DNA of 64,000 nt from a virus (Duplodnaviria > Caudoviricetes). The notes under the pieces were generated by a model, which made no database searches, was not told the DNA's origin, and saw nothing but the letters and a program-made list of their open reading frames with translations. Location: the IMG/VR virus record IMGVR_UViG_3300020577_014401, positions 1-64,000 of that record. The stretch is one strand, 5' to 3'. Positions 35,961-54,480 of the stretch are shown here, in pieces. Positions within the stretch are counted from its first letter, which is position 1. Every line of letters starts with the position of its first letter. A program made the position numbers and the translations under genes.

Positions 35961-36776
35961 ATGCCATCGGCGTCCTCGACCACCTACCCGTTCAACCCCT
36001 CCGGGACGACTCCGGCCGCCCCCGAGGTCGATCCGTGGAAATCTCCGGGTCAGGGGCAGACCCTGCTGGAGGACAAGTACGCCGAGCCGTATCAGGCCTA
36101 CAAACAGAACCCGAGCCTGGAAACGTCCGGTCCGCTCCTGAAGGCCATCGAACCCATCATCAACGAATCGTTGAGGTCGTACGCCGGTACCGAAGCGCAG
36201 ACCGGGACCGCGCGGGCGAGGGCCAAGGTGCTCGCCCTCGATGCGATCAACAGGTACGATCCTCAACGAGCCAAGCTGAGGACGCACCTCCTCAGCCATC
36301 TTCGAGGGCTCCGCCGCGTCACGGAGCGATCGACGGCCGGAGTGTACGTCCCCGAGCAGTGGAGGATCGATTCGCGAAGGGTCGATGCCGCTCTCAACGA
36401 TGCGAGAGACGAGCTGGGCAGGGAGCCGTCCGACGCCGAGTTGGCCGAACGGGCCGGCATCTCGATCGAACGGATTCGGAAGGCCAGGCAGGTGCCCGGC
36501 GTGTTGTCCGGCAGCCAGTTCGAAGGCGCGATCGAAATGTCGAACCCGAGTGAGAAAGCTTGGAACTCGTGGGTGGAAGGCATCTATCACGACTCCGACC
36601 CCAAGGACCAGGTGATCCTCGAATACTCGTTGGGCTTGCACGGGAAGCCGGTGCTTCAGGCCAACGAAGTGGCCGCCATGCTGAAGTTGTCGCCCGGGGC
36701 GGTTTCGCAACGAAAAGCCAGACTGCAGAACGCTCTGGATGAGTTCGAGCTGTTCATGAGGGGTCGAGGCCGATGA
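35961..36776 (+). CDS. sigma-70 family RNA polymerase sigma factor (FliA/WhiG-like)
   Basis: AINRYDPQRAKLRTH (region 2), LGREPSDAELAE (region 3), EVAAMLKLSPGAVSQRK (region 4). Confidence 0.85.
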   Translation: MPSASSTTYPFNPSGTTPAAPEVDPWKSPGQGQTLLEDKYAEPYQAYKQNPSLETSGPLLKAIEPIINESLRSYAGTEAQTGTARARAKVLALDAINRYDPQRAKLRTHLLSHLRGLRRVTERSTAGVYVPEQWRIDSRRVDAALNDARDELGREPSDAELAERAGISIERIRKARQVPGVLSGSQFEGAIEMSNPSEKAWNSWVEGIYHDSDPKDQVILEYSLGLHGKPVLQANEVAAMLKLSPGAVSQRKARLQNALDEFELFMRGRGR

Positions 36777-37347: not shown

Positions 37348-37787
37348 TGGCGACCCCGGCCCCGATCAATCCGTCGAAAAGCGACATCGCCCTGCTCGGC
37401 GATGGCAGCTTCACGTTCGACCCGGATTCGTTCGGGCCGTTCGGCGTCCGCGGTGCGGACAAGGTCGCGCAGCGATTCCTCTACGCTCTGTTCACTCCGG
37501 CAGGATCTGTCGCCGGCCGACCGAAAGACGGCACCGATTTTCTAAGGATGATCTCGTCGTTCGCGTCGGAATTCGATGTGTTCGCTGCATTTGCTTCATG
37601 CGAGCCGAAAGCCGTGACGACGGTGAAATCGTACGAATCGACCACCGACCCGGCTGCTGACCGGATCGACGGAGCCGCCTTGGCGGCGATGGAGCTCACG
37701 GCAGGTCTGTTGACGCTGACGTTCAAGGTCGCGACGATGGATGCCTCGCAACCGACCCAGGTCATCGACTACACGCTGGAAGCCTGA
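37347..37787 (+). CDS. baseplate wedge gp25/GPW-like protein
   Basis: GADKVAQRFLYALFTPAGS...GTDF; precedes baseplate J. Confidence 0.7.
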   Translation: MATPAPINPSKSDIALLGDGSFTFDPDSFGPFGVRGADKVAQRFLYALFTPAGSVAGRPKDGTDFLRMISSFASEFDVFAAFASCEPKAVTTVKSYESTTDPAADRIDGAALAAMELTAGLLTLTFKVATMDASQPTQVIDYTLEA

Positions 37788-39412
37788 TGCCGACCACCGC
37801 CGCCGATCTCGCCGGAGCGACCGACAGCCAGATCCTGGCTGCGCGGAACGCCCTCATCGCGTACCTCCAGGAACGGTGGCCGAACCTCGCCATTCGCGGT
37901 GGCCCGCTCGCCGATCTTGTCCTCGGACCATCCGGGAACGCGTTGGCGGCGGTCGATGTGATCGCCGCCGAAGCGGCGCTGTCGTACAACCCCGAAGAAG
38001 CGTTGGCCCAGGGGGGCTACAACTCGACCATCCTCGATTCCGTTCTCGCCGGGCGAGGTGTGCAGAGAACCCAAGCGGCGGCCGCTTCCGGGTCGGCGGG
38101 CATCCGCCTCACGAGTTCGACAACCCGGTCGTTCCCGGCCGGGTTCAAGTTCCAGACCGCCGACGGAGTCGAGTTCGCAACCAGTCAGTCGACCCGCCTC
38201 CTCGCACCCGGCTCGACCGCCGTGCTCGCCAACGATTACGTCTTGGTGGCGGACGCTGAAGGCGAGACGTTTCTGGCGGTGGTGGCGATCAGCTGCCGGA
38301 CGACCGGGTTGTCCGGGAATCGGGCCGCCGGGACGACGCTTGAAGCTGTCGACACGTTCGATTCGCTTGATTCCGCGTGGATCGCTGTCGACACGGCTGG
38401 CGGGTTGGACGAGGAGACCGACGCTGAGCTGCTCGCAAGACTGCCGGCCGCCTCGGCGCCCAGGACCGCGGCGTCGATCGCCGGTGCCGAAGGTCTGATC
38501 CGAGATGCGATCCCGGCCGCCTCCACTCTGTCATCGATCAAGTTCGGTGACCCGGAGATGGTCCGGGGGCGATCCGTTCTGTCGACTCAAACCCCCGGCC
38601 GATTCGACGTCCGGTTCCGCACCGAGTCGTCGCCGAGCCGGGAAGGCACGACAGTCGAAGCCGAGCTCATCAGCATCGACCCGGAAGACATCGGAACTTG
38701 GAGGTTCACGCTCACTCGGGATATCTCTCCGGGGCGATTCCTCGTTGAAAAGATCCTGAGAACCGACCAGGGTGTCACTGAAGCCGGCATCAACCCGACA
38801 GTGACCCCGGGGTTCGACCTGTCCGACATCGACGATCCGCCGGACATCCGGTCGGTCGCCGACGCGGCGCTCACGCGGTACGCCACCGCCCTTGTGACAT
38901 TTGCGGATCCTTCGACCTCCACGACCGGTTTGGAAGTGGGGGACATGAAGGATTACCAGGTGGTTTGCCGCCTGATCGCCGGGGTTGAAGACGGCCAGGC
39001 CGCGGTCGATGTCGCCGATGCGAAGGCCGCCGGCGGCGACTGCCTGGTCCGGACCGCGGTGCCGTGTCTGGTGTCGGTGACCGCCGCCGCCACACCGGCG
39101 GCGGGCGTGTCCGTCACCGTGGCGGAAGTGCGAGCGGCCGTGGCTCAGGCGATCAACTCGGCGGCGAAGATCGATAGCCGGCTATTGGCTTCGCAAGTCG
39201 CAGCCGAAGCGGCCGTGATCCTTCCGAAGGGAACAGCGTTGCTGCTTTCCAATTGGTCGGGTACCATCTATCCCAACGATGGCGATGATCCGGTGATGGC
39301 GACGGCCGACCAACTCGGACTGACGGTCGCCGACAACCTGCCAAGGAACATCAGCGCCGCCACGGTCGCTTACTACTGCGACCCGGAATCCGTCACTGCA
39401 TCCGTCTCGTGA
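37787..39412 (+). CDS. baseplate J-like protein
   Basis: RTQAAAASG...FPAGFKFQTADGVEF...GGLDEETDAELLAR. Confidence 0.85.
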   Translation: MPTTAADLAGATDSQILAARNALIAYLQERWPNLAIRGGPLADLVLGPSGNALAAVDVIAAEAALSYNPEEALAQGGYNSTILDSVLAGRGVQRTQAAAASGSAGIRLTSSTTRSFPAGFKFQTADGVEFATSQSTRLLAPGSTAVLANDYVLVADAEGETFLAVVAISCRTTGLSGNRAAGTTLEAVDTFDSLDSAWIAVDTAGGLDEETDAELLARLPAASAPRTAASIAGAEGLIRDAIPAASTLSSIKFGDPEMVRGRSVLSTQTPGRFDVRFRTESSPSREGTTVEAELISIDPEDIGTWRFTLTRDISPGRFLVEKILRTDQGVTEAGINPTVTPGFDLSDIDDPPDIRSVADAALTRYATALVTFADPSTSTTGLEVGDMKDYQVVCRLIAGVEDGQAAVDVADAKAAGGDCLVRTAVPCLVSVTAAATPAAGVSVTVAEVRAAVAQAINSAAKIDSRLLASQVAAEAAVILPKGTALLLSNWSGTIYPNDGDDPVMATADQLGLTVADNLPRNISAATVAYYCDPESVTASVS

Positions 39413-39431: not shown

Positions 39432-40274
39432 ATGATTCGCGCTTTCTCTTGGATCTTGTTCGCGGCGCTGGCCATCGCCAGTTGCCAGGTGCAATCCGCC
39501 GATCCGTTGCCGACGCCCAAGTCGACGGTCAAGTTCCCGGTTCTCCCGGTGAAGCCGGTCGACGACAAGAAGGCCGAGCCGACGACTCCGCCGGCCAATG
39601 ACATCCCGGTTCTCGACGAGGGCGTCTACTACGTCATCCACGACGACGCCCCGTTCATCACGTACGCATCGCCGGCGAATTTGGTCCACATCACCAAGAC
39701 GACCGGGCCGGTCAAACTGCTCGGCAAGTTCATCGACGGCACCGGCGACTTCGAAGAGAAGGAGTACAAGTCGAAGAACGTCACAATCATCCGTGCCAAG
39801 GCTCAAGGCCGGGTCGAGCTGATCGTCAACGCCGTCGGAGCTGTCGACGAGTCGACCGCCCAGCGGAAGTTGATCGACGTGATCTCTGGTCAAGGGCCGA
39901 TCCCGCCGCCCAAGCCGGTGGTGCCGGTGACGCCGACGGAAGTGAAGTCGTTCCGGGTGATCTTCGTGATCGAATCGGGCTCGACTCCGACCGCCGCCCA
40001 GCTCGGCGTGTCCGACGCGAAGCTGGTTCGCGACTACCTGACTGCGAAATGCACCAAGGAGGGCGAATGGCCGGGCTGGCGCCGGTACGACCCGGACGCC
40101 GATGTGACCAACGAGCAGCCGACGATGAAGGCGTTGTGGGAGGCTGTGAAGCCGAAGATCACTTCGACCCCTTGCCTGGTTGTCGAGACCAACGGGAAAG
40201 TCGACATTCTTCCATACCCGAAAAACTCAGTCGAGAGTCTGTCGTTGCTCAAGAAATATGCGGAGGGCAAATGA
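39432..40274 (+). CDS. secreted/lipoprotein with Pro linker and thioredoxin-like C-terminal domain
   Basis: Signal peptide (LAIASC), GPIPPPKP linker, FRVIFVIES...TPCLVV. Confidence 0.6.
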   Translation: MIRAFSWILFAALAIASCQVQSADPLPTPKSTVKFPVLPVKPVDDKKAEPTTPPANDIPVLDEGVYYVIHDDAPFITYASPANLVHITKTTGPVKLLGKFIDGTGDFEEKEYKSKNVTIIRAKAQGRVELIVNAVGAVDESTAQRKLIDVISGQGPIPPPKPVVPVTPTEVKSFRVIFVIESGSTPTAAQLGVSDAKLVRDYLTAKCTKEGEWPGWRRYDPDADVTNEQPTMKALWEAVKPKITSTPCLVVETNGKVDILPYPKNSVESLSLLKKYAEGK

Positions 40275-40837
40275 CTTCGGTGATCCAGTCCAACCAAAAC
40301 GATCATCTTCTGCGTCGTCTGTGGCGGCAAATCGCCATTGATGGCCAAAGTGGCTGTTGGGTGTGGACTGGAACAATATCCACAGACCACATGCACTACG
40401 GCCAGGTCAGTGTCAATAACCGAGCACAGAAAGTTCATCGGTTGATGTACACACTGATGGTCGGCCCCATCCCGACCGGGCTCTGTGTTCTTCACAAATG
40501 CGACAACCCGCCATGCTGCAATCCTGGTCATTTGTTTACTGGGACGAACGAAGACAACACAAATGATCGCCACAGAAAAGGCAGATCTGCCCGAGGATTG
40601 GCGAGTGGTCGGCATACAAAACCGGAGCGGACAGCGAGAGGGAGTAGGAACGGTCGTTCGAAGCTGACAGAATCGAAAGTGGCGACGATCCGCGATCGCT
40701 ACGCGACCGGTAACGTATTCCTGAAAACTCTCGCCAAAGAGTACAATGTTTCGACTCAAGTTGTGTGGAGGATTGTTCGGGGTATCAGTTGGAAAACCTT
40801 CGAAGACAAGACTTCACCCACTAAAAGGACTCAGTGA
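40271..40837 (+). CDS. HNH homing endonuclease
   Basis: CWVWTG...KVHRL...VLHKCDNPPCCNPGHLFTGTNEDNTND plus C-terminal HTH; AT-richer. Confidence 0.9.
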   Translation: MTSVIQSNQNDHLLRRLWRQIAIDGQSGCWVWTGTISTDHMHYGQVSVNNRAQKVHRLMYTLMVGPIPTGLCVLHKCDNPPCCNPGHLFTGTNEDNTNDRHRKGRSARGLASGRHTKPERTARGSRNGRSKLTESKVATIRDRYATGNVFLKTLAKEYNVSTQVVWRIVRGISWKTFEDKTSPTKRTQ

Positions 40838-42885: not shown

Positions 42886-44916
42886 ATGAGCAGCCCGACG
42901 CCCAAACAGTTGATCGGAGGATACTGGGGCGTCAATCCGTCGCCGGTCGTTGACGACTACGCCGGCGTCTGCTCGGCGGTGTCCGGCCCTGGCTCCGGTC
43001 TCTACGCCGGCTCCCCGCTCGCCTGTTGGGCCATTCAAAGAACCCAACGCGTGTTCCCCGGCCCGAATGGCTCCGTGGCGTACGGGTACCCGGCCCCGGC
43101 TTCCGATCCTGTTTGGATTTCACTGACACAGTCGTCCGGGCCGGTCCTGACCAAAGGCCCGGATTTCATCATCGAAGACGGGTATGTCTGGTTCACACGC
43201 GATCCGTTTTTCGATCGCCCAGGCCGGATGGAATTCTCGGCCGCCAACGGCTTCCAACCGGTGCTGGACATCTGGTACGGGGCCGAACCGACTTCGGTAC
43301 AAGAAACGCCTCCGCTCGACGCAACCGCCTACGCGCTCGCCAAGTCGATCGCCACGTCCACCGATTCGCCGTGCTCCGGACCGGTGCGTGAAACCGTGAC
43401 CGACATCTGGCAGGCGGCCGACGGGTCCTGGAGGGTCGTCACGAACGTCGCCGTCTACCGCCTCGAATCCGGGAACGATCCGGTCGTGGTTGCCGGGGAC
43501 GTCCTGGCTCCTGGTTCGCCGATCGGCCAGGCTTGGTCGTTGGAGAAGCTCGATTTCCGGACAGTGTCGGATTACATCACACTGCCGGCGTCCTTCATGC
43601 AAGGCGTCACGGAAGGCAACGTCACCTGGTACCGGGAGAATTGTCCGATCCTGGTCGACGACTACGCCGGCCGGACGCGTGTCCGATTCGACCTCGGCGT
43701 CGAGTCGATCGCCGACTTCGACGCCATCTGGGAAGCGTCGATGGTCAACGGCGTCGAGAACGGCCGCACATTGGCCCAAGCTCTCGACACAAGGCCGTCT
43801 GGAACGGGCGACCCGGGGGCGGCCAACCTGCCTCGGGTCGTCAGTCCGATGCGGTTGCTGGCCAAGGAGTTGCTGGCCGGATGCGCCTATCGACTGATCG
43901 TCAAACCGGACAAGTTCGGACCTTCGGGTCTTTCGGTCGATCAAGTGGCCGCGGCGGCGAGAACCGCTGCCGGCTCATATCCGGCTATCTTTGTGTGGGA
44001 AAACGAGGAACCGGTGTACGACCCGGTCCAGCCGTCGACGACGACTACGACCACGCACCCTCCCACGACGACGACAACCACGTATCCGCCTACGACAACC
44101 ACAACCACGTACCCGCCCACGACGACCACGACCACCATTCCGCCCACGACAACCACCACAACGGTTCCTGGCGGCGACTGGTACTGCATCAATGTCACGT
44201 CGTTCTCGTCGCCGGGCGGCCCCGGCTACAACTGCTTCAATGGCAGTGCTGGAACCGGGCCGATGTGTGTCCAGCAAAGCAGCGTGGTCGGAGGCGGGTT
44301 CCCGTGCGGACCGTCGGGGACGACGAATTGCCATCAGGGGTGTGGCGGCGGGGTTTCGACATACTACGACGTCACTTCCGGACCGCACGCCGATTACGCC
44401 GCGTGCTCGGTATCGTGCGGCGGCGTCACAACGACGACCAACACTACGATCGCTCCGGTGCCGCTGCAGTACGATTGTTCGCTCGGTTCTTGCGTCGGCA
44501 TCCTGATCGGCGACTACCCGACATTGGCCGAGTGTGAAGCGGCTTGTGGCGGGTACACTCCCGGAGACTGTTGCACGCTTGGAGCCCTGTACCACCCTGA
44601 TCTGAAACTGACCATCGCTGACGGTCCGAACGCGGGCGATCACACTGTCACTTGGGCCGCCGGTTGCTACCCTGATGGCTGCTGGGTGGCGTTGACCCCG
44701 AGCCTCGGCGCGGAGATCTTGTTCGGCTGTGGAAAAGTCGAAACCGGGACCTGGAGGGTGAAAATCACCCCGACGGTCCACCCGGCCATCGGCTGGAGCG
44801 ACTCTGCCAAGGCCGCCACGCAAACCTGCATGCCGTCGTTCCTCGCCATGTGGGACGACGCGGACGTGCTGGCGTTCTTCAGTACGACCCAGCCGATTCG
44901 GTTGACCGTGGCTTGA
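42886..44916 (+). CDS. baseplate/tail protein fused to a mucin-like Thr-rich linker and Cys-rich domains
   Basis: N-terminal ~380 aa resemble a structural/wedge domain; (T6xPP) repeats; Cys-rich C-terminal half. Confidence 0.65.
   Translation: MSSPTPKQLIGGYWGVNPSPVVDDYAGVCSAVSGPGSGLYAGSPLACWAIQRTQRVFPGPNGSVAYGYPAPASDPVWISLTQSSGPVLTKGPDFIIEDGYVWFTRDPFFDRPGRMEFSAANGFQPVLDIWYGAEPTSVQETPPLDATAYALAKSIATSTDSPCSGPVRETVTDIWQAADGSWRVVTNVAVYRLESGNDPVVVAGDVLAPGSPIGQAWSLEKLDFRTVSDYITLPASFMQGVTEGNVTWYRENCPILVDDYAGRTRVRFDLGVESIADFDAIWEASMVNGVENGRTLAQALDTRPSGTGDPGAANLPRVVSPMRLLAKELLAGCAYRLIVKPDKFGPSGLSVDQVAAAARTAAGSYPAIFVWENEEPVYDPVQPSTTTTTTHPPTTTTTTYPPTTTTTTYPPTTTTTTIPPTTTTTTVPGGDWYCINVTSFSSPGGPGYNCFNGSAGTGPMCVQQSSVVGGGFPCGPSGTTNCHQGCGGGVSTYYDVTSGPHADYAACSVSCGGVTTTTNTTIAPVPLQYDCSLGSCVGILIGDYPTLAECEAACGGYTPGDCCTLGALYHPDLKLTIADGPNAGDHTVTWAAGCYPDGCWVALTPSLGAEILFGCGKVETGTWRVKITPTVHPAIGWSDSAKAATQTCMPSFLAMWDDADVLAFFSTTQPIRLTVA
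44035..44169 (+). repeat. 5 x TTTTTTxP(P/G) 27-bp coding repeats
   Basis: Direct reading; Thr codons are diversified. Confidence 0.9.
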
Positions 44917-44938
44917 TGAACCTGACGACAAGGAACCG

Positions 44939-45163
44939 ATGACTTCCAAGGAATTGATCAACTCGTTGATCAAACGGAAAATCCCCAGGGCGACCGTCTC
45001 ATTGGAGCCGGCGGACGACGGGTACCGGCTGAAAGTGGTCTCCGATCACTTTCGAGGTGCCCAGTTGACCGACCGGCAGAGCATGGTCTACCAGGCGCTC
45101 GATCGGGCGCCTCTTCCGCTGCTGGCCAAGATCATGGCGATCGACTGTCACGACGGGTGCTGA
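44939..45163 (+). CDS. BolA-like protein
   Basis: LKVVSDHFRGAQLTDRQSMVYQAL matches the BolA VVSxxFxGxxxxxRxxxVYxAL signature. Confidence 0.75.
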   Translation: MTSKELINSLIKRKIPRATVSLEPADDGYRLKVVSDHFRGAQLTDRQSMVYQALDRAPLPLLAKIMAIDCHDGC

Positions 45164-47359
45164 TTGGAACCCTCGACCACAACCACGACGACGCAGGGCC
45201 CCTGCAACAACACCTGTCCGGCCCCGGACTGGCGGGACCCGCCCGTACTCGATCCGTGGACAACCACCACCACGACGTCGGGCGGCGGGTCCACGACTAC
45301 GTCTACGACTGAGGCGCCATGCCCGGGGACGTGTCGATTCACCTGGAGCGTAGGATCGAAAACTTGGGTCAAATCTTCGTCGACGTGCGGTGAAGGATGC
45401 GCCTGCTCGCCTCCGACGTTCTGCCCGCCCGACCCGGGTACCCCAGTTTGCACGGATACGTATTGCTACCGAAATTCTTACGATTCGCCGCTTCCAAATT
45501 GCACCGGTACGACCACGTCATACGGTCCGGATGACTGCGCGCCCCGCACCACGACAACCACCACTATTGCCGGATGTGTCCCCGGTAATTGTTACGGTTG
45601 TGATTGGTTCTGCCACCCAGTCTCGAAAAGATGGATTGGACTACCGGGCAACGAATGCGACGGGTGCAACATCAGGTGCCAAAACACCTGCGCCGGACCG
45701 ACCAAGCCTTGTTTGGGCGATTGTTCCGTTGTCCACACTGATTGCGCTCCGGTTCCTCCGCAGCCGCCGGCTGATGACCCGATAACATGTAACGGAGACT
45801 GCTTATTCCACTGGGTGCCGGCGACTGATTTCACCGCCGGCTACTGGTTCCGCGACCAAGATCGCCCAGGTTGCAAATTTACCGGACTGACCGGCTCTCA
45901 AATTTGCAGTTGCGCCGACCCTACTTTCGAAGGCACCTACTGCGGCGCCCCTGTTCTGACGCCGTGTACTCTTAAGGAGCAAGTCGCAGGTACCACTACG
46001 ACCACTACTAGAGGATGCCCTGTCATCCCGGTCTGGACGACCCCTCCGTATGACCCGAACAACCCATGCGCCGGCTATTGTTACTGGAGATCGGACGGGG
46101 CTGGTGGGTGGCTCTTATCCAGTGGTTGCCCGAGTTGTGACTGCGCTCAACCTCCGGCGGCCTCGTCTTCGTCATGCGCTATTGCACAAACTCCGTGTGG
46201 GGTCCCGACGACAACGACCACGACCATTCCACCACCCACAACAACTACGACTACACCGAATCCTTGCGGTACATCGCAATGCGTCTGGACGTGTTACGGC
46301 CCGTCTTCGACCTGGAATCTCAATTCCAATCCGTGCAACACCGGGTGCGGATGCGTCTACCCGACTGCGACGTGCGGCAGCGAACAACACGGCGCCGGCA
46401 TCGGCACCGCCTGCATCATCGACGGCACGACGACGACGACAACCGCCCCGGCCGTGAACTGCAACTGTGTCTACGATCCGGCCGCTCCGGATTATGTCGC
46501 TCAGAAACCGTGCTCGGCCGGTCTCCCGGCCGCCGGCGTAAACGTCGCAGTCAGTGTGATTTCGAGTCTTCTTCCGAGATGTCGTTTGTTGTCGACAGGG
46601 TGGAATTGCCCGACGAAAAGCGGCAATTGCACTTATGTCGGGACCGGCAACGACGACATCAACAACATTCACCTCGACGCCACGGTCATCCGCGGCATCG
46701 ATGGTGGAGGCAACGCCGTCACTCTGGTTTACATCTACGACGCCTCCGACGGCTCGTCTTTGACCTACCGGATGGCGTCTCCTCCACCGATCGATTGTTG
46801 CACTACCGACAGCGTTCCCAACTTCGAACAAGTCGGGTTCTCCGAGTGCGGAGGGTTGACAGGCACCAATGCCGATCTGACGCCGCTCTCGTCACCGTGC
46901 GAGTGTTCGACAACCACCACGACGACGGTCCTCCCGTCGACAACCACGACGACAACCTTGCCTCCGGGCACGTTGCAGTATTACTGCATCGACGAGACGC
47001 AGTGTTCGATGATCAGCTGCACGTCCTGCACCGGAGCTACAACTCGTAGTTGCCAAGGTTGGTACTCGACACCGCCGACCTGCTCTGACACTGGCGCGAC
47101 TTCAGTCCACAGAGTCATCGTCGCCGGCCCGTTCGCCAGCACTCTCGCATGCGGAGAATCCTGCAGCGGAACTCCGACGACCACGACAGCCGGGTCGGCC
47201 TACAAGTGCTACAGCTGCCCGCCGGAAGGAGGCGGTATCGGCATCGGTACCTGCATCCTCGACGGAGATCCGGTGCCCAGCGGATGCCTCGGACCTCTTA
47301 GCTCGTGGTCGTCGTTTGCAGCATGTTCGGCCGGTTGCGTCGGAGGAATTACTCCGTAG
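45164..47359 (+). CDS. Cys-rich, poly-Thr mucin-like protein (731 aa)
   Basis: Alternating Cys-rich modules (C-x-W...C-x-C-x-xP) and Thr runs; weak TTG start. Confidence 0.7.
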   Translation: MEPSTTTTTTQGPCNNTCPAPDWRDPPVLDPWTTTTTTSGGGSTTTSTTEAPCPGTCRFTWSVGSKTWVKSSSTCGEGCACSPPTFCPPDPGTPVCTDTYCYRNSYDSPLPNCTGTTTSYGPDDCAPRTTTTTTIAGCVPGNCYGCDWFCHPVSKRWIGLPGNECDGCNIRCQNTCAGPTKPCLGDCSVVHTDCAPVPPQPPADDPITCNGDCLFHWVPATDFTAGYWFRDQDRPGCKFTGLTGSQICSCADPTFEGTYCGAPVLTPCTLKEQVAGTTTTTTRGCPVIPVWTTPPYDPNNPCAGYCYWRSDGAGGWLLSSGCPSCDCAQPPAASSSSCAIAQTPCGVPTTTTTTIPPPTTTTTTPNPCGTSQCVWTCYGPSSTWNLNSNPCNTGCGCVYPTATCGSEQHGAGIGTACIIDGTTTTTTAPAVNCNCVYDPAAPDYVAQKPCSAGLPAAGVNVAVSVISSLLPRCRLLSTGWNCPTKSGNCTYVGTGNDDINNIHLDATVIRGIDGGGNAVTLVYIYDASDGSSLTYRMASPPPIDCCTTDSVPNFEQVGFSECGGLTGTNADLTPLSSPCECSTTTTTTVLPSTTTTTTLPPGTLQYYCIDETQCSMISCTSCTGATTRSCQGWYSTPPTCSDTGATSVHRVIVAGPFASTLACGESCSGTPTTTTAGSAYKCYSCPPEGGGIGIGTCILDGDPVPSGCLGPLSSWSSFAACSAGCVGGITP

Positions 47360-47399
47360 AACCACTCGTAGCCGCAATTCGTGCAACAGGAACTTCACC

Positions 47400-48920
47400 A
47401 TGGCTGTGCTGACAATCGGGATGGCGTGCTATCGGAGCTACGAGTCGGTCTACTTCACGTGTCTCTCGCTCCGGGTGCTCCACGGTTGGTCGTTCGAACT
47501 GGTCGTCATCGACAACGCCCCGGAGTCGTGCCAGCGAACCAAGGCGATTGTTCACAGCTGCGGCGGCCGCTATTACCATCGCCCGGATTTGAACGGAACG
47601 ACCAGGCCGCGAAACGCCTGCTTCCAGTACGCCAACACCCCGTGGGTCATGGTCATCGACGACCATGTCATTCTCGACAACGGGGCCGTGGCCGCCGCGA
47701 TCGATTACGCCGATCGCAACCCGCTTTCTAAGGACATCATTTCCGGTCCGATTCTGGGAGACGACGGACGCTGGGTGGCCACCCACTGGCAATCCGATCT
47801 GCCCCACAACCTGTGGGGGGTGTGGGGCTGCACCGGCGATTTCCAGGACCGTTGGGGGAAACAGAACGAATCGACCTGGAACAGAGCGTCGGCCAGAGCC
47901 GCGGTCGATCGGATGGAGCCGTTCGAAATCCCGTCGATGGGACTCGGGCTGTGGATGATGCGGAAGGCCGCGTGGCCCGAGTTCAATCCGCACTTCCGAA
48001 AGTTCGGCGGCGAAGAAGGTTACATCCACGAGAAAGTTCGTCGTCTCGGCGGCAAGGCGATCTGCCACCCCAAGATCCGATGGCATCACAAGTTCCGCGA
48101 TCCGTCGAAGCCCGGTGAAATCCCGTATCCGTTGGATCTGGAAAACCACGTTCGCAATCTGCTGCTCGGGGGGCAGGAACTCGGAATCGATCACATCGAG
48201 GATGTTTGGGAGCACTACGGCAAGCGGCTGAACGGTGGGCGACGATCGTTCGACTCGATCGTCGCCAATGTCAAATCCATCCAGCCGTTCGGGCAACTGT
48301 ACGCTCGGAAAAGACTGAACATTTTGGGTGTCTGGTACACCAACAACGCAGCCCCTGAGCATGTTCTTCGGTCGTCGCTCATGACGGTCCGGCAGGCCCG
48401 CAGCGAATCGTTTCACGATGTGGTGATCGGGACCAGCAGCTGGGCGCCGATCGCCGACAACACGTTTCCAAACGCGATCGCCTCCCAGGCGACGAAACGA
48501 AAGCCGGGCCACGCGACGATCATCAACCAGATTCGCGAAGCCTGGGAAGTCGGCCAAAAGTCGAGGAAGAATTGGACCCCGGACGTCATCTGCTTCCTCG
48601 AGCATGACGTGCTGTACCCGCCCGGCTATTTCGATCGGGTCGGGGACATGTTCTTGTTGAAGCCGTCCGCCGAGGTTGTCAATCACACCGATTACATTGG
48701 GCTGAACCAGACCGGCTGGTTGCGGATCGCCAACATGGATACCCCGCTTCACCAGTTGTCGATGCGACCCAAGAAGGCTCTCGACAATCTGGTTCGGGCG
48801 GAAGTGGATTGCGACCGGCAGGGATGGGCGTATCTTGAACCGGATCACGGCGCAGACAGGTCCGCCTGGGCCGTTTACCCGATCGACGGATTTTCCCCCA
48901 GCGTCCACATCAACTGGTAA
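47400..48920 (+). CDS. glycosyltransferase, GT-A/GT2-like (two domains)
   Basis: LTIGMACY...ELVVIDN...RNACF...VMVIDDH; FGGEEG; second domain CFLEHDVLYP. Confidence 0.8.
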   Translation: MAVLTIGMACYRSYESVYFTCLSLRVLHGWSFELVVIDNAPESCQRTKAIVHSCGGRYYHRPDLNGTTRPRNACFQYANTPWVMVIDDHVILDNGAVAAAIDYADRNPLSKDIISGPILGDDGRWVATHWQSDLPHNLWGVWGCTGDFQDRWGKQNESTWNRASARAAVDRMEPFEIPSMGLGLWMMRKAAWPEFNPHFRKFGGEEGYIHEKVRRLGGKAICHPKIRWHHKFRDPSKPGEIPYPLDLENHVRNLLLGGQELGIDHIEDVWEHYGKRLNGGRRSFDSIVANVKSIQPFGQLYARKRLNILGVWYTNNAAPEHVLRSSLMTVRQARSESFHDVVIGTSSWAPIADNTFPNAIASQATKRKPGHATIINQIREAWEVGQKSRKNWTPDVICFLEHDVLYPPGYFDRVGDMFLLKPSAEVVNHTDYIGLNQTGWLRIANMDTPLHQLSMRPKKALDNLVRAEVDCDRQGWAYLEPDHGADRSAWAVYPIDGFSPSVHINW

Positions 48921-48940
48921 ATCACAACAGGAACCATTCA

Positions 48941-50818
48941 ATGACCAGGTTTACGAATCACGGCGATTTCGTTTTCGAGCAGTCCAGCACACTTGGCCAA
49001 AATCATCCGTTTTGGGGACCGCACTCCAAATGGTGGCCCGGTCAAGTCGAGACACCCAAGCAGAAGGAGACGGACATGGCATGCGGGGGGTGCAATCAGC
49101 CCAATCGAGTCGCCAACACCGGTCCTGTCGACATCAAGGAATGGTACAAGTCGGAGAAGAACGCCCCTCCGGATTTCCACGCGCACATGGATACGCTCAA
49201 GGAGCTGTGCGCCTCGATCAAGCACGCCACGGAGATGTCGATCTGGCCCAAGCAGGCCTACTTGGCGATCGCGGCCGGCATGCCGGATGACGGGGTGCTG
49301 ATCAGCGTGTCGCTCGGCGGCAAACCGTGGTGGCCGAAAATGGCGGCATCGCTCGGCGCCAGGTTCAAGATGACCCCGCAGAATTCCCTGACGGCGGACA
49401 TCGAGCCGACCGAGTTATTGTTCATCGACTCCGAACACACCGCACAACGGACGTACGACGAGCTGACCCGGCACGCCGGCAAAGTGTCCAAGTACATCGT
49501 CATCCATACGGTGGCCCGCGACACGTTCGGAGAACGCGGCGACGACGGCGGCCCCGGCGTCATGGCCGGAGTCCGGCAGTGGCTCCGCGAAGGAGCCTCC
49601 CGCGAGTGGGTGGTGAAGCGATTCGACGAGCACAACCACGGATTGGTTGTTCTCAGCCGCGATCCCGAAGACCATCCGAAGATCAAGTTCGGGGCCCGTT
49701 CCGCCCTTCGGTTCGTCCGATCGAAGATCAAGCACAAGCTGAACGGGTCCACGTACCTGCCGTTGCCGATGGCGCAGGAACGGTTGGACATCTGCCTCAC
49801 TTGCGACAGCCGCGGAGGCCAGGAGGGCAACAACTGCAAGATCTGCAAATGCTTCCTCGCCGAGATCCCCGATTACGCCCCGGTCAACCATGGGCAGCCC
49901 GGCAAGGCGTTCATCCCGACCGAAGGGTGCCCGATCGGCAAATGGCACGACCGTCCGAACGACGGAGTGTCGATGACCGGCGAAGAGGTCGAGGCCATGC
50001 TCGAAACTCTCCGTGCCGAATCGGAGAAGCACCACGCCGAGGCCCCGGCCGCGGAGGAAAGCAGTCCTGTCGCGGTCGAGGTCGCCCATGTTGCCGCAGA
50101 AACTCCCAAGCAGGTCGACAAGACGTACCCGCTGGACCGGGTGTTCTCGATGTCGGGCGACTTGGGCGACATCATTTGCGCCCTTCCCGTGATCCGGACT
50201 CTCGGCGGCGGGAAGCTCGTGCTGTACCCGTCCAACCGGACGACCGTTCGCATGACGATGGACCGGGCCGCGGTGATCGCCCCGCTGCTCGTGACTCAGC
50301 CGTACATCTCGACGGTGCAATTCGCCGACAACCCCGAAGGCATCGATCTGGATTCGTGGAGAAACAGAATCAAGCCCGGGACTCTCCAGACGGCGCTCGA
50401 TGCGATCTCCGAGACATTCCTGCACGGAGCCAGGTTGTCGCACGAAGTGACTTGGCTCAAAGTCCCGCCCGAGAGAAGAGCGGCGGTCGTCTTCCATCGC
50501 ACGCTCAAGGACAATCAGTCGATGGACTGGAAGCGGTTGCTCAAGGAGCACCCCGATTCCGTGTTTGTCGGACTCAAGCAGGAGCACGAAGCGTTCGAAT
50601 CGGACATCGGTCCGATTCCATACGTCGAAACGACTGACTTGCTGAAGATGGCCGCTGTCATCTCCGGAGCCGACCGTGTCATCTGCAACCAGTCTGTCGG
50701 CCTGATCATCGCTTACGGGCTCGGTAAACCGGTGATCTGCGAGACCAACCGCAAGGGCATGAACTGCGCCTGGAACCGCAAGGACTGCGAATTCCGCCCC
50801 GACCCCAGACTGACGTGA
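48941..50818 (+). CDS. SAM methyltransferase + Cys-cluster domain + GT9-like glycosyltransferase fusion (alternative start ATG 49076)
   Basis: ELLFIDSEH MTase motif; CxxC...CxxCxC...CPIGKW; SGDLGDII...ISGADRVICNQS...GLGKP. Confidence 0.7.
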   Translation: MTRFTNHGDFVFEQSSTLGQNHPFWGPHSKWWPGQVETPKQKETDMACGGCNQPNRVANTGPVDIKEWYKSEKNAPPDFHAHMDTLKELCASIKHATEMSIWPKQAYLAIAAGMPDDGVLISVSLGGKPWWPKMAASLGARFKMTPQNSLTADIEPTELLFIDSEHTAQRTYDELTRHAGKVSKYIVIHTVARDTFGERGDDGGPGVMAGVRQWLREGASREWVVKRFDEHNHGLVVLSRDPEDHPKIKFGARSALRFVRSKIKHKLNGSTYLPLPMAQERLDICLTCDSRGGQEGNNCKICKCFLAEIPDYAPVNHGQPGKAFIPTEGCPIGKWHDRPNDGVSMTGEEVEAMLETLRAESEKHHAEAPAAEESSPVAVEVAHVAAETPKQVDKTYPLDRVFSMSGDLGDIICALPVIRTLGGGKLVLYPSNRTTVRMTMDRAAVIAPLLVTQPYISTVQFADNPEGIDLDSWRNRIKPGTLQTALDAISETFLHGARLSHEVTWLKVPPERRAAVVFHRTLKDNQSMDWKRLLKEHPDSVFVGLKQEHEAFESDIGPIPYVETTDLLKMAAVISGADRVICNQSVGLIIAYGLGKPVICETNRKGMNCAWNRKDCEFRPDPRLT

Positions 50819-50820
50819 GC

Positions 50821-51735
50821 ATGGAATACAAACTCGTCGTGAGACGCAAAGGAGTCGGAGACACAGTGGCGATCTCGCCCTTGGTGCGGGATCTTCACCG
50901 TTTCAGACCGGATATCCGGATATCCGTCGAAGGCACGTTGGCTTCGGAAATTTTCAAACACGACCCGAGAGTCTCGACCTGGTCCGGAAACGGACGGGAA
51001 GTTGTGATCGACTACAAGCCGACTCACGATCGGGCTCGGTTCGACAAATCCGCCAGGTACCTGCTCGCCGGACTGGAAGACTTTAACCTCCAGACCGGCC
51101 TCAGTGTCCCGGCCGGCGATCCTAGACCCGAGCTCGTCCTGCTCGACGAGGAACGACCGGAACCGTCGGCCTATCCTTACATCGTCCTGGCTTCCGGTGT
51201 GAAACTGGACATGCCGCTGAAGCGGTACCCGCATAACCGTTGGGCCGAACTGGTGAGGCTCGGTTCGGCTCTGGGTTGGAAATTCCGACAGGTCGGCCAA
51301 ATCCACGACGGCAGGTTGCCGCATATCCAGGAAGCGATTCCTGGCGCCGACAACCTTCTCGGCAAGACATCGATCAGGCAGTTGTTCCGCGTGATCTCCG
51401 GGGCGGCCGCCGTGGTCTGCCACGTCTCGCTGCCGATGTTGATCGCGTCGGCCTTCCGTGTCCCGTGCATCGTTCTCGGGGGCGGGCGGGAGAACCCTTG
51501 GCTGTTCGCCGACATGGGAGTCGACTATCTTCACACCATCGGCGAGCTCGGGTGTTGTCAGCTGCACGGCTGCCATGCTTGTTTCGCCAAACCGGCCCAC
51601 GACGGAGCCTATCCTCCCGGCAGTCTTTGCGCCGATCCGGTGGAATGCGAGAACGGGTCCGCGGTCGGGCGGTGCATGACGCTCATTGAGCCGTCCGAGA
51701 TCGTCGATCGTCTGAGCGTACTCGTCCGACCCTAA
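50821..51735 (+). CDS. GT9/ADP-heptosyltransferase-like glycosyltransferase
   Basis: GVGDTV...KRYP...LLGKTSIRQL...SLPMLIASAFRVPCIVLGG. Confidence 0.85.
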   Translation: MEYKLVVRRKGVGDTVAISPLVRDLHRFRPDIRISVEGTLASEIFKHDPRVSTWSGNGREVVIDYKPTHDRARFDKSARYLLAGLEDFNLQTGLSVPAGDPRPELVLLDEERPEPSAYPYIVLASGVKLDMPLKRYPHNRWAELVRLGSALGWKFRQVGQIHDGRLPHIQEAIPGADNLLGKTSIRQLFRVISGAAAVVCHVSLPMLIASAFRVPCIVLGGGRENPWLFADMGVDYLHTIGELGCCQLHGCHACFAKPAHDGAYPPGSLCADPVECENGSAVGRCMTLIEPSEIVDRLSVLVRP

Positions 51736-51826: not shown

Positions 51827-53083
51827 TTGAGCACACCGATTCAAGATCTGATGGACGACGTCGAAGCGTGCATGGACGTCGGCAGTGTGGCGTACATCCT
51901 CGGCCCGCCCGGCTGCGGCAAGACCGCGGCCATCTCCGCCTTGGCCAAGAAGCGCGGCGGGTTCTTCGCCGCCATCGTCGGATCGATTTCCGACCCGACC
52001 GACATCTCCGGGTTTCCCGTGGTCACGCAGGCCGAGCACTCCGATTCGGCCGGGCGAAAGACGCCGTCCCTGAAGTTCGCCCCGAGAGACTTGCTGGTCC
52101 GTCTCAATGATGAGGGTGGCGTCCTGTTCCTCGATGAACTGACATCCTGCCCACCGGCGACCCAGGCCTCGCTGCTCACCGGCATCTGCGATTGGCGATT
52201 CGGCGATTTCCAGCTGGACCGTCACAGGGTGGCGATCGTCGCCGCCGGCAACCCGGCCGATATCGCGGCCAACGGTCAAGAGCTGGCCGACCCCATGAAC
52301 AACCGGCTCGAGCATTTCGAGTTCCCGGTCGATTCCTCGGCGATCTACGAGTGGTGCTCGCAGTTCCCGGGCTATTGGGGCGACCCGCCGAAGGTGGGGT
52401 TCATCAGCCGGCACGGCGAACGGTTCATTTCGCCGGAATACCTGCTCCGGGCCCGATCGGCCGTCGCCGGGTACATCCGCAAGAACACGAAGGCGTGGTT
52501 GGACGAGCGATTCGACAAGAATTCCTCATCCAAGGATTCGTCGAAGGACCGAGTCAGCCCGGCGTGGCCGAGCCCGCGGTCTTGGGGTCGAGTCGCCAAC
52601 CATCTGGCGAAGGCGCTCGACCAGAAGAAGTCGCCGCTCTCGGCCATGCGGCGAATCACGGCCGCCATCGGTCACGCGCAGGCCGTTCAGTTCCAAACGT
52701 ATCTGCGGGAAGTCGACCTGCCGGATCCCGAGATGCTGCTGGCGAATCCGGACAAGTACAAGCCGACCGGCCGACTCGACATCGATTTCGCGACAACAAT
52801 GTCGGTCATCGCCGCTCTCGAGTCGAACGTCACCGGTGACCGCTACGTGGCTTCCTGGAAAATCTGCCGGACGGCTGTCGAGGACAAGGGCGAAGCCGGG
52901 CCGGCGTACGAGGCCGGAATGGCGGCGGCGATCCGCTTGTCGAAGTTCCTGAAGCGGCAAACCGTCGAAGGGAAGAAGCTGTACGAATCGGGCAGCGACC
53001 TGAACAAGGTCATCCTCGATTCGCATAAGCTGTCCAAGCCGTTCCTGAAGCTGATCAAGGAAGCCGCCGGGGAGCTCTCATGA
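51827..53083 (+). CDS. MoxR-like AAA+ ATPase
   Basis: GPPGCGKT Walker A, LFLDE Walker B, AAGNP sensor, NRLEH, SPRSW. Confidence 0.9.
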   Translation: MSTPIQDLMDDVEACMDVGSVAYILGPPGCGKTAAISALAKKRGGFFAAIVGSISDPTDISGFPVVTQAEHSDSAGRKTPSLKFAPRDLLVRLNDEGGVLFLDELTSCPPATQASLLTGICDWRFGDFQLDRHRVAIVAAGNPADIAANGQELADPMNNRLEHFEFPVDSSAIYEWCSQFPGYWGDPPKVGFISRHGERFISPEYLLRARSAVAGYIRKNTKAWLDERFDKNSSSKDSSKDRVSPAWPSPRSWGRVANHLAKALDQKKSPLSAMRRITAAIGHAQAVQFQTYLREVDLPDPEMLLANPDKYKPTGRLDIDFATTMSVIAALESNVTGDRYVASWKICRTAVEDKGEAGPAYEAGMAAAIRLSKFLKRQTVEGKKLYESGSDLNKVILDSHKLSKPFLKLIKEAAGELS

Positions 53084-54480
53084 GTTCGGAAAAACAGTCG
53101 TCCTCGGCCGAGCCCGCGGACTGGGAGGTTTCTGACAAGGCCAAGGAGATTTTCAGCCTGGCCCGCACCGCCATTCCGCTTTACTGGCCGTTCTTGACCG
53201 CGGCGGCTTATCGGTTGGTGCCCCGCTGGACTCCACTCGTGCCGACGATGGCGGTCGACAAGTGGTGGAGGCTCTACCTCAATCCGAAGTTCGTGGAGAC
53301 GAAAACGCCGCCCGCCCTCGCCTTGCTGATTGTCGGTCATGAGCTGCAGCATCTCCTTATGCAGCACCATTCCCGGTTGATGGAGTACCGCGACCGTTCG
53401 CTGATCATCAACGGGGTGGAGCACGATTTCGCCAACATCTGCAACGATCTGGCCATCAACTCGTCGCTGAAGCAATTCGCAGCGACGGGGATCGCCTATC
53501 GGACCCAGGTGTCGGCGAAGCCGGCCGGCAAGCTGGAGGCGCCTGTCGAAGCGATGTACCCGGAGAACTTCGTCGACAAGCAAGGCAACAAGTTTCCGAA
53601 CGGATTGATCTCGGAGCGGTACGCCGAGCTTTTCGAGAAGAACGCCCAAGCGAAACCGAAAAGTGGAAAAGCGGGCGGTACCGGCAAACCGTGTTCCGGC
53701 CAGTGTGGTTCGGGCGGCGGTCAACAGGCCGGCGACTGGGAAGACAAGGGGGACGCCGACCCGGACAAGCCCACCACGGGTGTGACGAAAGAAGAGGCGG
53801 ATGTGCTCGCCAGGCACACGGCCGAAGCGGCACGGGAGCAGGCGCAGAAGCACCGCGGCACCGTGCCGGGCAACATGGAATTGTGGGCTGAAGTCCAGCT
53901 CAGCCCCCCGAAGATCGATTGGCGGAAGCAGTTGGCCCCCATCGTTCGGAAGGGGTTGAACTGGGCGGCCGGCCGGACCAACTACTCGTTCTCTCGACCG
54001 AATCGGAGAGCGATCGCTTCCATGTCGAAGGTCGTCCTCCCCGGCATGTATTCGCCGAAGCCGAAGTTCGTTGTCGCCCTCGACACCAGCGGGTCGATGG
54101 GAAGGAAGGATTACGCAATCGCGTTCTCGGAGTTGAAGTCCGTACTGGCGACTTGCGGGATCCCCAAGATCCCGTTCTTCTCCGTCGACGCCCAGGCGTA
54201 TGACATCCAGATGATTTCCAAGTTGGAGGACATCAAGCTCACCGGCGGCGGCGGGACGGACATGGGGCTGGCCGTCAAAGTCGCCTCCGAGATCCCCGGC
54301 ATCAGTCTGATCATCGTGCTGACCGACGGGGTCACCGATTGGTGCCCGCCGCCCCCGAACGACATCCGTGTCATCATCGTTCTCACACAGAAGGAGACGG
54401 AGAGCTACCCCGCCCCGTCGTGGGCGACAGTGATGGAAGCATTCGACGAAAAGAGAAAACCCGACCATGATGACGATTGA
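53080..54480 (+). CDS. HExxH metallopeptidase-like + VWA domain protein (DUF2201-like)
   Basis: TMAVD, HELQH, DTSGSM MIDAS, GGGGTD, LTDG. Confidence 0.85.
   Translation: MSSEKQSSSAEPADWEVSDKAKEIFSLARTAIPLYWPFLTAAAYRLVPRWTPLVPTMAVDKWWRLYLNPKFVETKTPPALALLIVGHELQHLLMQHHSRLMEYRDRSLIINGVEHDFANICNDLAINSSLKQFAATGIAYRTQVSAKPAGKLEAPVEAMYPENFVDKQGNKFPNGLISERYAELFEKNAQAKPKSGKAGGTGKPCSGQCGSGGGQQAGDWEDKGDADPDKPTTGVTKEEADVLARHTAEAAREQAQKHRGTVPGNMELWAEVQLSPPKIDWRKQLAPIVRKGLNWAAGRTNYSFSRPNRRAIASMSKVVLPGMYSPKPKFVVALDTSGSMGRKDYAIAFSELKSVLATCGIPKIPFFSVDAQAYDIQMISKLEDIKLTGGGGTDMGLAVKVASEIPGISLIIVLTDGVTDWCPPPPNDIRVIIVLTQKETESYPAPSWATVMEAFDEKRKPDHDDD

Follow-up and report, generated by a model that had tools for sequence, protein, structure and literature searches.

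The first 64,000 nucleotides of a tailed-phage record in IMG/VR (IMGVR_UViG_3300020577_014401; this stretch is called the window) carry, between positions 42,886 and 51,735, a run of genes for two Cys/Thr-rich proteins, a two-domain glycosyltransferase (GT), a protein with a Methyltransf_24-like domain and a GT9-family enzyme. We propose that these genes include a phage-borne cytoplasmic cassette for protein O-glycosylation, acting on the phage's own Thr-rich fibre proteins, and we put the probability of this reading at roughly 0.62. The proposal draws on the gene pairing conserved in relatives, the mobility of the cassette, its tail position, the fold and the motifs of the enzyme, the link to a methyltransferase, selection on the protein in the Thr runs, and a candidate sugar supply. 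The window opens a single contig of 109,992 bp and has a GC content of about 62%, no tRNAs and nearly all genes on the + strand; the host is probably a member of the Planctomycetes. All the cassette genes described lie on the + strand, at the coordinates first assigned to them, and the features are as follows.

37787-39412, + strand: Baseplate_J-like baseplate wedge gene (Pfam PF04865, 7.8e-14; PHROG 6, baseplate wedge, 1.3e-16)
42886-44037, + strand: N-terminal non-repeat domain of A676, residues 1-384 (homologs P0002 and P0003)
44038-44163, + strand: stalk of A676, residues 385-426, five T6-xPP repeats (five mixed-codon runs of six Thr, T6), proposed O-glycan acceptor
44164-44916, + strand: Cys-rich segments of A676 (8 and 10 Cys) and its C-terminal globular part, from segment analysis
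44939-45163, + strand: BolA-like open reading frame (ORF) of 74 amino acids (Pfam BolA, 3.1e-5, 24.6 bits against a cut-off of 25.7)
45164-47359, + strand: B731 (731 amino acids), canonical Cys-module/poly-Thr protein with 71 Cys, 124 Thr and nine T6 runs between Cys modules
47397-48305, + strand: GT-A domain 1 of the 506-residue enzyme, residues 1-303, resembling polypeptide GalNAc-transferases (ppGalNAc-Ts) by AlphaFold (AF2) fold match and motifs, proposed initiating Thr O-glycosyltransferase
48306-48920, + strand: GT-A-like domain 2 of the same enzyme, residues ~304-506, proposed elongating transferase (ESM Atlas, whole-length fold matches)
48941-50020, + strand: Methyltransf_24-like S-adenosylmethionine methyltransferase domain and Cys4 ribbon (ESM Atlas)
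50100-50818, + strand: 220-residue domain of an unnamed family, C-terminal part (residues 400-618) of the 625-residue protein (homolog architectures)
50815-51735, + strand: GT9-family glycosyltransferase of 304-306 amino acids (Pfam PF01075, 1.4e-10, and fold)

Poly-Thr proteins and their pairing with a glycosyltransferase

IMG/VR contains 406 relatives of the 506-residue enzyme and GTDB genomes a further 364, and the closest cellular homes of this family are Gemmata species; the architecture, which an earlier note on this DNA had taken to be unusual for a bacteriophage, is therefore not rare. That note had also suggested a co-occurrence check across related contigs, which for this enzyme and its methyltransferase came out clearly in favour of a link. 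We examined 15 non-redundant loci from Gemmata prophages and viral contigs, in which the enzyme was matched over its full length at 40-48% identity. At every one of the 15, a poly-Thr/Cys ORF of 450-1100 amino acids ends no more than about 100 nucleotides upstream on the same strand. A poly-Thr ORF was also found directly upstream in 39 of 113 loci matching the first GT domain only. Within 3 kb upstream there were 0.144 such ORFs per kb; the remainder of these loci had 0.0044 per kb, which amounts to a 33-fold enrichment. Additionally, tblastn placed a methyltransferase domain directly after the GT in 14 loci; in most relatives the methyltransferase is fused to the GT-A enzyme in a protein of about 800 amino acids, while in this phage it is a separate gene.

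Apart from acceptor, GT and methyltransferase, the relatives' loci have almost nothing in common with this phage and are not otherwise syntenic with it, so the trio travels as one cassette. At L005, L092 and L087, three loci from Gemmata prophages, it lies 3' of head-tail adaptor and tape-measure genes, and the position after the tape-measure gene is the place of distal tail (tail-tip) proteins. The window offers a comparable tail/baseplate context through the Baseplate_J gene upstream of the cassette, with several unnamed ORFs and an HNH endonuclease between that gene and A676 (42886).

These neighbourhoods bear directly on the view that the enzymes never act on the Thr-rich proteins and modify host envelope glycans or phage DNA, the poly-Thr stretches being flexible linkers and the adjacency reflecting a shared late/tail operon. 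The best-known phage GTs are indeed those that glucosylate DNA or convert the serotype of the host (PMC12619734), protein glycosylation has no direct evidence here, and 74 of the 113 distant relatives have no upstream poly-Thr ORF. Yet this view has to contend with the 33-fold local enrichment, with the invariable pairing at the 15 full-length loci across genomes otherwise sharing nothing, and with the fold and motifs of the enzyme, which match polypeptide transferases. Genes for DNA modification are absent from the adjacent positions, and the enzymes appear from their sequences to be soluble and devoid of membrane segments, unlike Gtr-type serotype converters. We regard this view as very unlikely.

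Two further loci deserve description. L029:6457-16654, in a metagenome-assembled genome of Thermomicrobiales, encodes a protein of 1114 amino acids with 177 Cys and Thr runs together with a GalNAc-T-like GT, along with an NAD-dependent sugar epimerase, a DUF7164 protein, a further Cys-rich protein with 110 Cys and an ATP-grasp enzyme, so the pairing of acceptor and GT is not confined to evident phage contexts. At L095:4934-8212, a viral Cys/Thr-rich protein of 1090 amino acids with three Stig1-type Cys-rich domains (Pfam 3.3e-20) stands upstream of a GalNAc-T-like GT, and a collagen-repeat protein is encoded further upstream of it.

Turning to the putative acceptors of this phage, both of the Cys-module proteins with poly-Thr/Pro stalks described in the earlier note are present. 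A676 (676 amino acids, 42886-44916) comprises an N-terminal domain, the stalk, the Cys-rich segments and a C-terminal globular part, and B731 is read from a TTG start codon. Together they contain 14 long Thr runs (5 + 9), every one of exactly six Thr. The runs are written in mixed ACG/ACC/ACA/ACT codons with no two of the 14 strings identical, consistent with the codon diversification claimed before. The mixed codons and fixed length of the runs point to selection on the protein. In 21 related proteins, T6 accounts for only 57 of the 180 runs of at least five Thr, so the uniformity in A676 and B731 is not due to chance; it is real and particular to this phage. We rejected 'exactly six Thr' as a family-wide rule, as the runs of the relatives span 3 to 20 residues.

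B731 is tied to the relatives by its sequence: over residues 52-271 it shares 31-37% identity with Cys/Thr-rich proteins encoded by Gemmata prophages (E to 6e-16), and the alignment reveals a 46-residue module, CxGxCxW..W..CxxGCxCxxP..C, common to B731 and the relatives' proteins. A profile of this module retrieved no relative from Pfam or the PDB, only a marginal match to an engineered knottin-type peptide (E 1.1) that serves as a lead only. For A676, two homologs of 381 amino acids each, P0002 and P0003 from two sister contigs, are 57% and 50% identical to the N-terminal domain and terminate precisely where the poly-Thr stalk starts, so A676 belongs to the conserved proteins of this phage group and has gained a stalk and Cys modules. 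In a tblastn search of 50,697 phage records A676 had no match, and no relative of its N-terminal domain was found in IMG/VR. By BLAST, the Cys-rich and C-terminal part resembled neither B731 nor the relatives' Cys/Thr-rich proteins. Gene position, the sole basis for locating A676, would place it in the baseplate or a fibre.

Between the two genes lies the BolA-like ORF, overlooked in the first reading. It ends in ...CHDGC-TGA (TGA at 45161-45163), and the TTG codon that opens B731 follows this stop directly in the same reading frame. The arrangement could reflect read-through, translational coupling, or a redox/metal helper for the Cys-rich protein; no counterpart of the ORF was found within the Cys/Thr-rich proteins of relatives.

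The Thr/Cys-rich proteins might also be glycosylated without being part of the virion, as a released or host-surface decoy, a biofilm/adhesion matrix, or a superinfection-exclusion coat during infection or lysogeny. A composition so rich in Cys points to life in an oxidising, extracellular setting, an anchor domain is missing from B731, and cassettes also occur in bacterial loci lacking evident phage genes, such as that of Thermomicrobiales. Against such a role, no evident signal peptides or membrane segments were read from the sequences of the cassette proteins, and the cassette is consistently found 3' of tape-measure or baseplate genes. Moreover, in A676 the stalk and Cys modules are joined to a conserved protein encoded in the baseplate gene block, and the Cys/Thr-rich proteins of relatives begin with non-repeat domains of a kind typical for attachment. 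We therefore consider a non-virion role improbable.

The GT-A enzyme and its methyltransferase partner

The 506-residue enzyme (likely start 47397, end 48920, + strand) matches the generic Pfam GT2 family (PF00535) at 3e-11 and is called GT2 below. We built an AF2 model of it from 20 homologs, with a predicted local distance difference test (pLDDT) score of 90.8 and a predicted template modelling (pTM) score of 0.86. In this model, domain 1 is closest in fold to the eukaryotic ppGalNAc-Ts, with VIA Z scores of 19.7-23.7 to 29 ppGalNAc-T entries (root-mean-square deviation 3.0-3.9 Å, around 3.3, over 253-269 residues, around 268). The next families were GlfT2, K4CP and B4GALNT1, at Z 18.6, 17.8 and 17.4, respectively. 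A Foldseek-independent search of 48,161 representative chains gave the same order, with ppGalNAc-Ts at Z 21.6 and 21.2 and the next match at 17.1.

The motifs of domain 1 point in the same direction. D87-x-H89, G203-G-E-E206 and H230-x-F232 are invariant in the 20 homologs. In family GT27, to which the ppGalNAc-Ts belong, the DxH motif, a distal His and residues of the Gal/GalNAc-T motif bind Mn2+ and UDP. The family profile FGGEEGyiHekvrrrGg...rHrFr aligns to WGGENFEISYKIWQCGG...GHIYR of GalNAc-T7 (residues 311-392) with an E value of 0.51, which alone is not significant.

The C-terminal half differs from GT27: the ricin-type lectin domain is absent, and residues 304-506 adopt in the model a GT-A/nucleotide-diphospho-sugar transferase fold instead. 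Domain 2 had ESM Atlas structure matches to GT2 clusters with template modelling scores of 0.69-0.75, and the whole-length fold matches of the enzyme were to the two-GT-A enzymes K4CP, PmHS2 and COLGALT1. Searched alone, domain 2 matched nucleotidyltransferases of the IspD/GlmU type in the PDB (Z 12-13). It lacks the GxGxR motif of these types, and it has E-H-D where GT-A enzymes have DxD; this E401-H402-D403 is invariant among homologs. Judged from the model, the enzyme would work like GT27, but two features keep it out of that family, the lack of significant sequence similarity and the missing lectin domain.

The 625-residue protein (48941-50818, + strand) consists of two domains, each of which also occurs independently. 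It has no Pfam match, and a PDB sequence search with it found nothing. Its N-terminal part is Methyltransf_24-like according to the ESM Atlas, the sole evidence for this assignment, with a score of 0.93, 186 of 256 features shared and all of the ten best named clusters being Methyltransf_24. Compared with the genome's own Methyltransf_24 domain, it gave a weak FID..H motif match only (E 0.32). The 220-residue domain at the C-terminus occurs in homologs alone or fused to GT4, GT2, GT34, GT25, TylF or Methyltransf_24. It has only weak local similarity to GT9 (E 5e-4), and an Atlas cluster with GT9 and Methyltransf_24 scores 0.90 for it; from sequence, it is possibly a reduced GT9-like domain. 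Of the roughly four GT domains and one methyltransferase counted in the earlier note, the two GT-A-type domains are supported by fold and the methyltransferase by the ESM Atlas, while of the two GT9-like domains one is verified.

The same phage carries a second sugar-modifying island beyond the window (genome 100827-104082), where a gene for UDP-galactopyranose mutase (TIGR00031, 3.6e-58) is followed by one for a GT2-DUF3431-Methyltransf_24 protein. The possibility that GT2 or the methyltransferase domain is a close paralogue of this latter protein was considered and rejected.

Proposed mechanism and the place of the GT9 gene

From what was observed, namely the layout of the genes, their conserved pairing in relatives, and the folds and motifs of the products, we infer the acceptor, donor sugars, methylation and virion location in the following scheme. 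GT-A domain 1, as a polypeptide N-acetylhexosamine transferase, would put the first sugar on the T6 threonines of B731, and of A676 with its acquired stalk, via its DxH...H metal site. GT-A domain 2 would then add a second sugar, and the Methyltransf_24-like domain would O-methylate the sugar and cap the chain. The product would be stiff, protease-resistant mucin-like stalks that bear small Cys-rich modules at the distal tail and that may serve as adhesin or receptor-binding appendages. In the weakest step of the scheme, the GT9-like domain and GT9, fed by an HldE-like enzyme, may add heptose to the same glycan.

The GT9 gene is assigned to its family by Pfam (PF01075, 41.4 bits against a cut-off of 22) and by the fold of its AF2 model (pLDDT 86.8), a GT-B fold of the GT9 type. 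The model gave Z scores of 19-22 to every solved GT9 structure, namely 22.4 to 3tov, 20.6 to WaaF (1psw), 19.4 to WaaC (2h1h) and 19.1 to TibC (4rb4), with the next family at 16.4. The protein is no WaaC/WaaF equivalog, reaching 30.5 bits against 134.6 for TIGR02195 and 23.2 against 185.3 for TIGR02193. Five C-terminal Cys (C245, C246, C251, C270 and C285) are invariant, in a region where the model has a pLDDT of 46-71. A TibC-type protein heptosyltransferase was rejected as an identity for this enzyme, because its fold shows no preference for TibC, it lacks a beta-barrel and its relatives do not co-occur with Thr-rich genes.

A divergent gene for an HldE-like bifunctional kinase/adenylyltransferase lies beyond the window (genome 65556-66989), 14 kb downstream of the cassette and adjoining a gene for an SbcD/Mre11-like phosphoesterase. 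Both the PfkB and the cytidylyltransferase-like domains are present, and residues 4-474 align to positions 10-471 of the 475 in NF008454. It is possible that this enzyme supplies ADP-heptose to the GT9 enzymes.

In sharp contrast to GT2, the GT9 gene proved independent of Thr-rich genes, an outcome that the earlier note had set beforehand as speaking against its proposal and that applies to this part of the cluster: among viral loci of GT9 relatives (25-42% identity), a poly-Thr ORF was present at 1 of 80, and a GalNAc-T-like GT likewise at 1 of 80. Collagen-like ORFs occurred at 19 of the 80, some of them GPT/GXT-rich and often ending just upstream of GT9, which hints that the GT9 family may serve collagen-like fibres. 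This arrangement is seen in other large phages (L166, L167, L172, L177, L182, L192 and others), where the Y position of several of the collagen-like ORFs is occupied by Thr (GPT/GXT), in as much as 97% of cases.

The cassette may accordingly be two systems side by side, in which the GT-A enzyme and methyltransferase act on the poly-Thr proteins, while the GT9-like domain, GT9 and the HldE-like enzyme are merely neighbours that serve another target, be it another virion protein (e.g. collagen-like or capsid), host lipopolysaccharide (LPS) or the host envelope. Besides the locus counts above, this division is favoured by the lack of a fold preference for TibC over LPS enzymes (Z 19.1 against 19.4-22.4), and by the position of the HldE-like gene, 14 kb off among unrelated genes. 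It is harder to reconcile with the fusion of the methyltransferase to the GT9-like domain in the 625-residue protein, whose stop codon the GT9 gene overlaps. Only the nearest relatives keep GT2, the 625-residue protein and GT9 on one contig, but these closest relatives do carry all three together, and two loci (L162 and L163) have a methyltransferase-like stretch directly 5' of GT9. We take the division to be a serious contender at somewhat less than even odds; that the GT9 and HldE-like enzymes act on the same glycan as GT2 we hold only tentatively, at a little better than one chance in three. What is supported of the earlier proposal is the observation itself and the core of GT-A enzyme and methyltransferase; the GT9 linkage is not supported by co-occurrence.

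Several observations weigh against a glycosylation cassette for the phage's own fibres, beginning with the 1 in 80 of the GT9 loci. No glycan, methyl group or virion proteome was observed, and all functional claims are inferred. The similarity to GT27 is not significant at the sequence level, as phmmer found no PDB match at E <=1 and the 20-homolog profile reached no better than the E 0.51 given above; GT-A folds are broadly alike, and the PDB contains a disproportionate number of ppGalNAc-Ts. The transferase activity of domain 2 is uncertain because its domain-only matches are the nucleotidyltransferases IspD and GlmU. The N-terminal domain fused to A676, residues 1-384, is there as the earlier note had said, but its structural appearance was not borne out, as it has no Pfam or PHROG match and belongs to no recognisable structural family. 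Sister phages possess this domain without a Thr stalk, and their contigs still encode GT2 and GT9. B731 lacks an N-terminal non-repeat anchor domain, which every relative has. Finally, the HldE-like protein matches NF008454 at 2e-57 over its full length, but with 194.9 bits it stays far under the equivalog cut-off of 521.

Some neighbouring genes stand apart from this argument. The HNH homing-endonuclease gene (window 40049-40837; PHROG 1872, 8e-36) lies within the baseplate gene block and overlaps the 3' end of an ORF of 280 amino acids at 39432-40274. Directly 5' of that block, a sigma-70 region 3/4-like protein is encoded at window 35961-36776 (Pfam Sigma70_r3, 1.6e-7), which may be a phage late sigma factor. 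Directly 3' of GT9 (window 51827-54480) are genes for a MoxR/AAA_5-type ATPase (PHROG 1297, 7e-44) and then a DUF2201_N/DUF2201 VWA-metallopeptidase-like protein (Pfam 2.4e-29), a pair conserved in phages.

Relation to known systems

Phage virion glycosylation as such is already known from mycobacteriophages, according to the account we draw on below. In the literature we found no description of GalNAc-T-like enzymes paired with poly-Thr fibre proteins, or of mucin-like fibre glycosylation, in phages. If our proposal is correct, mucin-like glycoproteins would be made by tailed phages of Planctomycetes, by many uncultured phages and by some bacteria, using an enzyme that resembles in shape the animal initiators of mucin glycans, and proven phage virion glycosylation would reach beyond the capsid and tail-tube cases of mycobacteriophages. 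It would also provide a compact, soluble, cytoplasmic pair of acceptor and enzyme for glyco-engineering of Thr tracts, and a prokaryotic/viral reservoir of GT27-like enzymes relevant to the origin of mucin-type O-glycosylation. In addition, a small new family of Cys-rich modules on phage fibres is defined. Particular to this phage are the two acceptors, the split of GT and methyltransferase, the GT9 enzymes, the HldE-like gene and the strict T6 runs.

The best structural match to the phage enzyme is the ppGalNAc-T family (CAZy GT27; human GalNAc-T2 4d0t/2ffu, mouse GalNAc-T1 8v9q, Toxoplasma GalNAc-T3 8uhv), at Z 21-24 over about 265 residues. The likeness extends to the invariant DxH, to the GGE(N/E)...HxFR stretch aligned to the Gal/GalNAc-T motif, and to the Thr-rich mucin-like protein, which here is the genetic partner. 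Unlike the ppGalNAc-Ts, which are Golgi type II membrane proteins, the phage enzyme is predicted to be soluble and cytoplasmic and is found in phages and bacteria. It has no significant sequence similarity to them, a second GT-A domain replaces the ricin-type lectin domain, and a methyltransferase is fused or adjacent. A bolder version would make the enzyme family a true prokaryotic/viral sister of eukaryotic GT27/GT60, with a mobile poly-Thr 'PTS' stalk cassette that in this phage is extended by GT9/ADP-heptose into a methylated, heptose-bearing mucin-like tail fibre; we consider this version doubtful.

With the bacterial BAHT enzymes (TibC, AAH), the phage GT9 shares the GT9 fold (Z 19.1 to TibC), and TibC is its best PDB sequence match, at a marginal E of 0.057. 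TibC has an N-terminal beta-barrel at residues 1-97 and a four-Cys iron finger after the C-lobe (PMC4358343). The phage protein likewise has a conserved Cys cluster after the C-lobe, where TibC has the finger, there is a gene for an ADP-heptose-type supply in the genome, and both would perform cytoplasmic Ser/Thr glycosylation. It differs in having no N-terminal beta-barrel, as the model covers no more of TibC than residues 97-389, and in its Cys spacing (CC-x4-C-x18-C-x14-C against C-x2-C-x15-C-x11-C in TibC). Furthermore, it is no nearer to TibC than to WaaC/WaaF, and its relatives do not co-occur with Thr-rich genes.

In mycobacteriophages, as related in PMC12619734, GTs decorate the phage's own structural proteins, with a shield proposed as the function (Freeman et al. 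2023, Cell Host Microbe), and the glycans on the C-termini of capsid and tail-tube subunits are proven by experiment. As far as that account goes, the system described here is similar in its phage-encoded GTs and in having the phage's own structural proteins as proposed acceptors. It differs in that these acceptors are the poly-Thr stalks of distal tail Cys-module proteins, deduced here from the genes, and in the type of enzyme and the host phylum.

A parallel in domain logic comes from a eukaryotic giant virus, the chlorovirus PBCV-1, whose A064R is a three-domain GT-GT-methyltransferase enzyme (Speciale et al. 2020, as cited in PMC7826918). From the description given there, A064R extends an N-linked glycan of the capsid by adding rhamnose and is not an enzyme that starts chains on protein. 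The fusions of about 800 amino acids in relatives of the phage enzyme follow the same order, two GT domains and then a methyltransferase that would cap the terminal sugar, a likeness in logic.

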